Shown here: one piece after another, positions 17,926-17,989 of the stretch
Position numbering within the stretch: position 1 is the first letter of the stretch
How the letters are laid out: the number at the start of each line of letters is the position of its first letter
Translations under genes and position numbers: made by a program
The notes under the pieces: generated by a model
Database searches by the model: none
Told to the model about the DNA's origin: nothing
The model's input: the letters and a program-made list of their open reading frames with translations, nothing else
Sequence record: PZ583739.1
From: a phage
Strand: one strand, 5' to 3'
Length of the DNA stretch: 64,000 bases

Positions 17926-17989
17926 CATAGTACCGGATGCACCATCCGCTCGGATTTCTCATACTACCGGGCGCACCGCCCGCTCTGGA
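17926..17989 (-). repeat. tandem pair of about 30 bp hairpin repeats
   Basis: catagtaccGGATGcacCATCCgctcgga and catactaccGGGCGcacCGCCCgctctgga; stems differ by compensatory changes. Confidence 0.5.

Follow-up and report, generated by a model that had tools for sequence, protein, structure and literature searches.

The locus analyzed here raises the question of what two closely similar RNA hairpins, lying in tandem between a stable-RNA gene and a T4-type late promoter, do for the phage that carries them. We studied the 64,000 nt of phage DNA in record PZ583739.1, the whole of which is called the window below, with positions counted from its first letter. The phage is T4-like and belongs to the genus Gaprivervirus, its nearest records (DK-13, vB_YenM_P8, TH55, UPEC07, MN01 and VR20) being 97-98% identical across 1.2 kb. 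All genes around the hairpins are on the minus strand, in the order tRNA-Met, tRNA-Arg, an 80-codon open reading frame (ORF), a 237-nt gap and a 127-codon gene, and the relevant hairpin RNA is thus that of minus-strand sense. In the direction of transcription, the features are as follows.

18453-18528, minus strand: tRNA-Met(CAU)
18376-18452, minus strand: tRNA-Arg(UCU)
18121-18360, minus strand: 80-codon ORF (phrog_33509)
18005-18124, minus strand: homolog of T4 rnaD (species 2 RNA), 88-97% identical to annotated records
17990-18004, minus strand: spacer CCUUUUACGGAGUUUU, containing GGAG (17997-17994), the first bases of the cassette described below
17955-17989, minus strand: repeat unit A, 35 nt, made up of UCCAGAG, hairpin A and GUAGUAUGAGAAA
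17968-17982, minus strand: hairpin A, CGGGCG-GUG-CGCCCG (arms 17968-17973/17977-17982)
17921-17954, minus strand: repeat unit B, 34 nt, made up of UCCGAG, hairpin B and GUACUAUGGAAUA
17934-17948, minus strand: hairpin B, CGGAUG-GUG-CAUCCG (arms 17934-17939/17943-17948)
17915-17922, minus strand: T4-type late promoter TATAAATA, an exact match, invariant in 17 relatives
17500-17883, minus strand: 127-aa orphan gene with an internal-protein-type N-terminus, MLTYAEFLNRNTITE
17480-17496, minus strand: stem-loop CACUUGC-CUU-GCAGGUG, at the right-hand junction of the replacement described below
17434-17461, minus strand: canonical terminator GCCCCUUCCGAAAGGUUGGGGCUUUUUU, at the same junction

The tRNA with the CAU anticodon is called tRNA-Met by ARAGORN and in most records, and tRNA-Ile2 (cat) in phage EAWsc9.

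The two repeats of the original prediction were present as quoted, at positions 17926-17954 and 17960-17989. A repeat search of the window gave a single 26-nt family with two copies, 34 nt apart from start to start and 81% identical, and a degenerate 26-mer of the unit occurred twice in the 64 kb compared with 0.00 times expected from 100 shuffles. Since units A and B abut head to tail, they represent a 34-nt unit duplicated in tandem, with the final two bases of unit B overlapping the late promoter. Both hairpins have a perfect 6-bp stem and a 3-nt loop; the stems first described were real, but one pair short. Two stem pairs differ between the copies, with both arms altered at each and pairing kept, precisely as had been noticed at the outset, and the loop was likewise the same in both, but the flanks, which had been taken to be identical as well, differ (cataGtacc versus cataCtacc, and gctcgga versus gctcTgga). 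The stems carry 4-6 G-C pairs, with a predicted RNA dG of -11.4 kcal/mol for hairpin A (30-nt context) and -7.9 kcal/mol for hairpin B. Taken singly, the hairpins are unexceptional in folding energy for their composition (RNA z-scores -0.8 to -1.6), so that the case for them rests on covariation and conservation. Their ensemble probability in the 83-nt segment was 0.82-1.0 in all 17 variants, and of the structures examined, just these two core hairpins were supported. An extended stem beneath hairpin A (CGGAGUUUUUC/GAGAAAUCCG), proposed by RNAalifold and RNAfold, was no better than with shuffled 5' flanks (p = 0.35), and is broken in TH44.

The motif is confined to this one place in the genome. 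Hairpins A and B are the only CAC/GTG-triloop hairpins with at least five pairs in the window, and the complete 172-kb DK-13 genome has two further ones, both unrelated. A dispersed repeat family was looked for and not found in the window, the DK-13 genome, 50,697 phage records, IMG/VR, metagenomes and GTDB (185,579 species genomes), the extra pattern matches in these collections being chance hits in GC-rich coding DNA. A host origin was also considered; no match was found in E. coli genomes, in a database where the motif is too short for significance. Bacterial REP sequences exist as hundreds of dispersed copies with imperfect stems of ~35 nt. The hairpins resemble REP/BIME elements, which act as 3' exonuclease barriers, in being short GC-rich palindromic units, often tandem, that follow transcription units and show compensatory stem changes, but they differ by being perfect 15-nt palindromes at a single locus. 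Occurring once per genome, the motif cannot serve as a recombination linker either.

The gap that holds the hairpins had been described as an ORF-free stretch of 230 bp, but it is 237 bp long and not empty, containing an unannotated homolog of T4 rnaD at 18005-18124. This homolog has 88-97% identity over 115-116 nt to T4, RB3 and other annotated records (X03016, AJ884578), is homologous to annotated rnaD over its full length, and lies after the tRNA cluster on the same strand. When the gap was searched by blastn in 50,697 phage records, its promoter-distal half (18005-18120) matched >700 T-even-type records at 78-97% identity. The aligned ends are AUGAGAAACCGGG ... GGCGCACC, those conserved in the alignment AUGAGAAACCGGGUCGCUACCGG ... 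CACAGCAGAAACGGCGCACC, and homology stops right after GGCGCACC. Whereas these ends are conserved among the 17 relatives, the centre varies strongly, with positions 18027-18077 existing as two very different alleles, T4-like and T2L-like (pi 0.28, with 59% of columns variable). The small stable RNA of T4 type that the hairpin pair had been suggested to be is therefore the adjacent rnaD homolog instead, and an Rfam scan of the region passed only the two tRNAs, with 17921-18004 having no overlapping match at E up to 10. The placement of the hairpins between the tRNA pair and a minus-strand late promoter was right as to the promoter, which is an exact TATAAATA, but the tRNA pair is not adjacent, with the 80-codon ORF and rnaD intervening. 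As a separate observation, a 24-nt, 92% identical copy of the 3' part of rnaD (its positions 93-116) is found at 122710-122733 of DK-13, in a small gene between two recombination endonuclease subunit genes (E = 0.004, single genome).

With regard to coding potential in the gap, no reading frame is kept among the relatives. One-nucleotide indels at 18000 (six sequences) and 17994 (TH54) break its plus-strand ORFs, and the only minus-strand mini-ORF, of 14 codons, has lost its AUG in TH44. Several GenBank records annotate hypothetical proteins over the gap (window 17905-18062, plus strand), antisense to rnaD or across the hairpins; these are probably spurious, because one-base indels among relatives break the frames.

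The relatives' alignment contained 17 sequences (15 phages, one metagenome contig and the window), all of the genus Gaprivervirus and at least 95% identical in the hairpin stretch, so that few independent covariation events are to be expected among them. The hairpins were present in all of these, and every stem pair stays paired throughout, with one both-sided switch and one G.U. Across the 11 distinct intergenic sequences, having six distinct units, 100% of the stem cells were paired, compared with 17-58% when partners were slid. Two of the six pairs are altered on both sides between distinct units, and both-sided changes are seen at three positions, two of them between the paralogous units and one among phages. 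The last of these is pair 17979/17971 of hairpin A, which is G-C in 8 of the 17 sequences and A-U in the other 9, with no intermediates. At position 17945 of hairpin B, 15 sequences have A and two (TH44 and TH40) have G, a change that on minus-strand RNA gives a G.U pair and keeps the hairpin (-7.3 kcal/mol), whereas on the plus strand it gives C.A and the hairpin is lost (-3.3 kcal/mol). The 121 nt from the end of rnaD to the AUG contain seven substitution columns, three of which are in stems; we estimate the chance of two among seven random columns landing on one of the 12 stem pairs at ~0.035, complementarity aside.

The units are also short of variation. Nucleotide diversity (pi) was 0.022 in their 70 nt compared with 0.152 at the 73 4-fold synonymous sites of the adjacent 127-aa gene, which is a ~7-fold deficit. 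Only five columns vary in the 70 nt and just two of these are outside the stems, both confined to TH44, compared with 51% of the 4-fold sites in the gene, and hairpin loops and flanks are thus nearly invariant among the relatives too. To judge from this alignment, the hairpins are structures kept by purifying selection, and the selected hairpin that had been deduced from the pairing of the two copies is borne out. Conversion between units A and B looks to contribute to the polymorphism that exists, with each polymorphic stem state among phages being the state of the other unit and with unit B of TH44 taking the unit A states at 17952 and 17945 in one short tract.

Such exchange brings up the question of whether the element acts in DNA, as a duplex operator or a cruciform near the late promoter, or has no function, being a neutral duplicated palindrome with a symmetry maintained through gene conversion between the units or through template-switch (quasi-palindrome) mutation. 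Both stems are perfect 15-bp palindromes that, for their composition, form stable DNA hairpins (z -1.8 to -2.8), the conversion-like states of TH44 and the sharing of stem states between units would fit, and templated mutation in T4 quasi-palindromes is well established (Ripley's model). The ~7-fold deficit of variation contradicts a neutral origin, however, and the A-U variant of hairpin A cannot have come from one conversion tract, since the differing positions 17978 and 17972 between its two changed bases are unaltered. A dimer binding the duplex would not explain why the two half-sites change in step, the lone unmatched change is of the type tolerated in RNA of the transcribed sense, and T4 late promoters are not known to need an upstream site. 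The variation deficit and the G.U asymmetry thus disfavour the DNA-level and neutral readings, which together we regard as improbable.

What the hairpins belong to became clear from comparison with phages lacking them. In T4, RB3 and T2L, as well as in CJ20 and SP18 of the same genus, the order after the tRNAs is rnaD, rnaC, a stem-loop and a terminator. CJ20 and SP18 carry rnaC at the position of the hairpins and share both flanks with the window. Homology with T4, RB3, T2L, CJ20 and SP18 is lost exactly at the spacer (17990-18004), after the 3' end of rnaD. In the window the stem-loop and terminator (17434-17496) directly follow the stop codon of the 127-aa gene, and the same sequence directly follows rnaC in CJ20, SP18 and T4, which defines it as the right-hand junction of a replacement. 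By these alignments, ~147 nt including rnaC are replaced by ~506 nt (18004-17499), a segment that consists of the 15-nt spacer, the two hairpin units, the late promoter TATAAATA and the 127-aa gene, and the hairpins are the leading edge of this ~500-bp cassette, which stands in the place of rnaC in ~15 Gapriverviruses. rnaC is absent from the entire 172-kb genome of DK-13, the gap of which is identical to that of the window, and the cassette-bearing phages are thus natural rnaC-minus/rnaD-plus variants. The hairpins and the 127-aa gene strictly co-occur, being confined to exactly the same 16 phage records. The promoter between them is separated by 11 nt from hairpin B, which precedes it, and by 31 nt from the AUG that follows, and exact TATAAATA sites number 20 in the window compared with 5.2 expected.

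That the hairpins took over the slot of rnaC allows the proposal that they are part of a stable small RNA, as a 3' extension of rnaD or as a separate RNA of ~85 nt (18004 to ~17925), functionally substituting for rnaC, a proposal close to the small RNA first suggested. T4 RNAC and RNAD accumulate as stable RNAs through infection (PMC9697503), and published accounts still assign no known role to rnaC or rnaD (PMC3014915, PMC9697503). The hairpin segment resembles the T4 arrangement in locus and strand, directly after rnaD; its entire 83-nt stretch is conserved with the high hairpin probabilities given above, and its 3' hairpin followed by an AU-rich stretch would block 3' exonucleases. It has, however, no homology to rnaC and lacks the tRNA-like 3' domain of rnaC (CCGGGUUCGAAUCCCGG), has no Rfam match, shows no defined 3' end signal, and its 131-nt fold was no better than shuffles (z -1.06). 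A small RNA of this kind is in our view distinctly unlikely. An rnaC remnant in the hairpin region found no better footing, with alignment scores equal to those of shuffles (p = 0.51 and 0.52, local and global), and the resemblance of the hairpins to the 5' end of rnaD (ATGAGAAA...CCGGTA), considered as their possible origin, was weak and non-significant (p = 0.086).

The 127-aa protein encoded by the cassette has an N-terminus resembling the capsid-targeting N-terminus of T4 IPI (MKTFKEF...STITE), as well as those of four internal-protein-like genes at 20317-21492 in the window (MKTYQEF...). These four, on the minus strand, start with MKTYQEF, MKTYQTF, MKTFNEF and MNIKTYNEF; some are preceded by early-type GTGTAC-N17-TATAAT promoters, and one TATAAATA in the array is made by the final codons of the upstream gene. 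Of 45 variable sites in the 127-aa gene among the 17 sequences, 44 are at codon position 3, and 15 of the 16 records encode an identical protein (100%), the exception being pEC-M719-6WT.2 with 99% identity. It gave no match in Pfam, PHROG, PADLOC or PDB, and its single-sequence AF2 model was unusable (pLDDT 36). Beyond the 16 phage records, the gene was found in one metagenome contig and one Logan cluster, and HMMER against 1.8 billion representatives gave only a close relative of 53 aa, 88% identical and thereby probably the same gene, together with two remote relatives, both having internal-protein-type N-termini. Remote relative 1 is encoded behind tRNA genes, a canonical UUCG terminator and the late-promoter-like ATAAATA, the terminator thereby occupying the slot held by the hairpins in the window, and remote relative 2 has no hairpin upstream. 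In a metagenomic T4-like contig with a remote homolog (1600-1930), the preceding tRNA region holds a tRNA-Gly, upstream of which there is a possible unrecognised tRNA-like sequence, and ~90 nt of unassigned sequence lie ahead of the UUCG terminator.

The late mRNA itself would begin downstream of the hairpins, and with the hairpins upstream of that start they can be present only in RNA that enters from the tRNA-rnaD side, unless they act in DNA. The explanation that we prefer, although tentatively and with somewhat less than an even chance of being right, is that they serve as a structured boundary in RNA, with the tRNA-rnaD transcript on one side and the late gene on the other. A minus-strand RNA reading out of the tRNA-Met/tRNA-Arg/ORF/rnaD unit, if transcription reaches this far as we infer, would carry both stem-loops, which would act in cis, in RNA, as a structured trailer of the rnaD-containing transcript. 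Such a trailer may end, protect or direct processing of that transcript, and would keep read-through out of the late gene. DK-13 encodes RegB. Besides the selected pairing and the cassette context given above, this interpretation is based on the lack of a terminator after rnaD, on terminators that precede late promoters elsewhere, on the terminator of remote relative 1 and on known stem-loop/promoter composites. With regard to the first of these, rnaD lies directly upstream on the same strand, and our scan found no terminator-like site between it and the hairpins. As for the second, canonical terminators with UUCG loops (36224-36259 and 42824-42855, plus strand) abut late promoters, and there a GC-rich hairpin a few bases before TATAAATA likewise divides an upstream unit from a late gene. 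These differ from the hairpins in having 8-bp stems, a UUCG loop and a U-run, compared with paired 6-bp, GUG-triloop hairpins having no U-run. Both end 4-6 nt before their late promoters. More terminators with UUCG or CGAA loops occur at 58303, 60022 and 56600, with a near-identical stem, AAGGGACC...GGTCCCTT.

The same comparison limits what kind of boundary this could be. Both stem-loops are GC-rich, but neither stem is directly followed by a U-tract, the tails being GUAGUAUG and GUACUAUG, and a terminator scan found no minus-strand site in 17300-18900, so that the hairpins are not canonical intrinsic terminators, which this phage freely uses elsewhere. The absence of an upstream hairpin at remote relative 2 also stands against a boundary function. 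Furthermore, a generic terminator or exonuclease barrier needs structure alone, and the near invariance of loops and flanks therefore points to sequence-specific recognition.

The composites that the boundary reading draws upon are PeSL and PmSL, stem-loop/promoter elements at the borders of shuffled orphan genes in T4-like phages (Arbiol et al. 2010, PMC2839356; Comeau et al. 2014, PMC4122927). Terminator activity is documented for PeSL stem-loops that precede promoters where indels begin or end (PMC2839356, PMC4122927). The hairpin cassette has the same layout, with a stem-loop immediately upstream of a promoter, a Shine-Dalgarno sequence and a start codon, at an indel boundary as defined against CJ20, SP18 and T4. 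The setting is also alike, at the edge of an inserted or substituted orphan gene within a hyperplastic region, where such elements are thought to isolate the cassette transcriptionally. There are three differences: the promoter here is a late TATAAATA, compared with sigma-70-like early or MotA middle promoters in PeSL and PmSL; two tandem stem-loops without a U-tract are found here; and the motif occurs once per genome, whereas theirs form a dispersed family. No -35/-10 match was found in the hairpin segment 17921-17989, and early-type GTGTAC-N17-TATAAT promoters occur at other cassettes. The hairpin pair would accordingly be a late-promoter counterpart of PeSL/PmSL, and we regard the element as a new, narrowly distributed form of a stem-loop type familiar between genes of T4-like phages.

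Read-through could alternatively be dealt with at the level of translation. T4 genes e, soc, 49 and I-TevI have translation-inhibitory leader structures (PMC3014915), in which a segment located upstream can pair with the ribosome-binding site and the late promoter is situated between the two, with the late gene being exposed to early or middle read-through, and the present layout fits that documented mechanism. Here, GUUUUUCCA (17994-17986) would pair with UGGAAAAAC (17895-17887) and hide the ribosome site in read-through RNA, with the promoter inside the loop and the late mRNA free. This 9-bp helix is seen in the minimum-free-energy fold and covers the sole GGA upstream of the AUG, and a C>U change in YenP8 retains a G.U. 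In contrast to the T4 leaders, however, the helix is weak, long-range (~90-nt loop) and non-dominant, with an ensemble probability of 0.00-0.32 that is 0.00 in five variants, and no difference in accessibility is predicted, as the energy for opening the ribosome site is equal in read-through (3.2-4.3 kcal/mol) and late RNA (3.0-3.9 kcal/mol). Changes in U/A-run length weaken it in 5 of the 17 sequences with no compensation, and there is no covariation. We find such sequestration very improbable.

The near invariance of loops and flanks is the main reason for keeping two further possibilities alive, one being the small RNA discussed above. The other is that the hairpins are two tandem operator-type recognition sites, with the GUG loop and the flanks being read by a protein or by another RNA, for which a processing nuclease, a regulatory RNA-binding protein of the phage or a host factor could be named. 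Conservation is here at the level of sequence, as given by the two variable columns outside stems among the five in 70 nt, and between the units the stems differ at 4 of 12 positions but the loop at 0 of 3, with the flanks differing less than the stems. Variable stems with constant loops and flanks are typical of hairpins read through loop and flanks, and the two sites have a fixed 34-nt spacing. This possibility nevertheless comes with no candidate partner, the adjacent 127-aa protein being without recognisable fold or family; the sites are upstream of the late start, making post-transcriptional regulation of the late mRNA impossible, and the element occurs only once per genome. We consider it rather unlikely.

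Also unlikely, in our judgment, and slightly more so, is that the pair is a previously undescribed RNA element, recognised sequence-specifically, that is either a signal for rnaD release and maturation or a trans-acting structured RNA. An RNase P cut normally frees the 3' end of rnaD. Loss of rnaC would also have removed that cut, and in the release version the hairpins would then free and mature rnaD. In this context it can be noted that the tops of both hairpins read GGUGC, the complement of GCACC at the 3' end of rnaD, and that this 3' end, GGCGCACC (18005-18012), is an exact 8-nt complement of GGUGCGCC (17970-17977, the loop and 3' arm of hairpin A), with substitutions at complementary positions in relatives (18006 C>U and 17971 C>U) being wobble-compatible, so that the two might interact directly. 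A 200-nt fold favours joining the rnaD 3' end to hairpin A and the 5' hairpin of rnaD to hairpin B, but the gain over separate folds was -4.5 kcal/mol, and 229 of 300 dinucleotide shuffles and 69 of 300 stem-randomised controls did as well or better; this pairing was rejected. A CRISPR-repeat mimic, an N4-type DNA hairpin promoter and a tRNA fragment had no sequence or architectural support.

The hairpin finding is itself modest. Should the boundary reading be true, it would mean that stem-loop/promoter cassettes of T4-like phages also come in a late-promoter form, and that this form has been used to insert an injected internal-protein-type gene inside a stable-RNA operon. The 127-aa orphan gene is noteworthy in its own right, encoding a near-invariant protein across phages although half of its 4-fold sites vary. 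What may be more useful is that ~15 sequenced phages, being natural rnaC-minus/rnaD-plus variants, make up a ready matched comparison together with the rnaC-bearing CJ20 and SP18.
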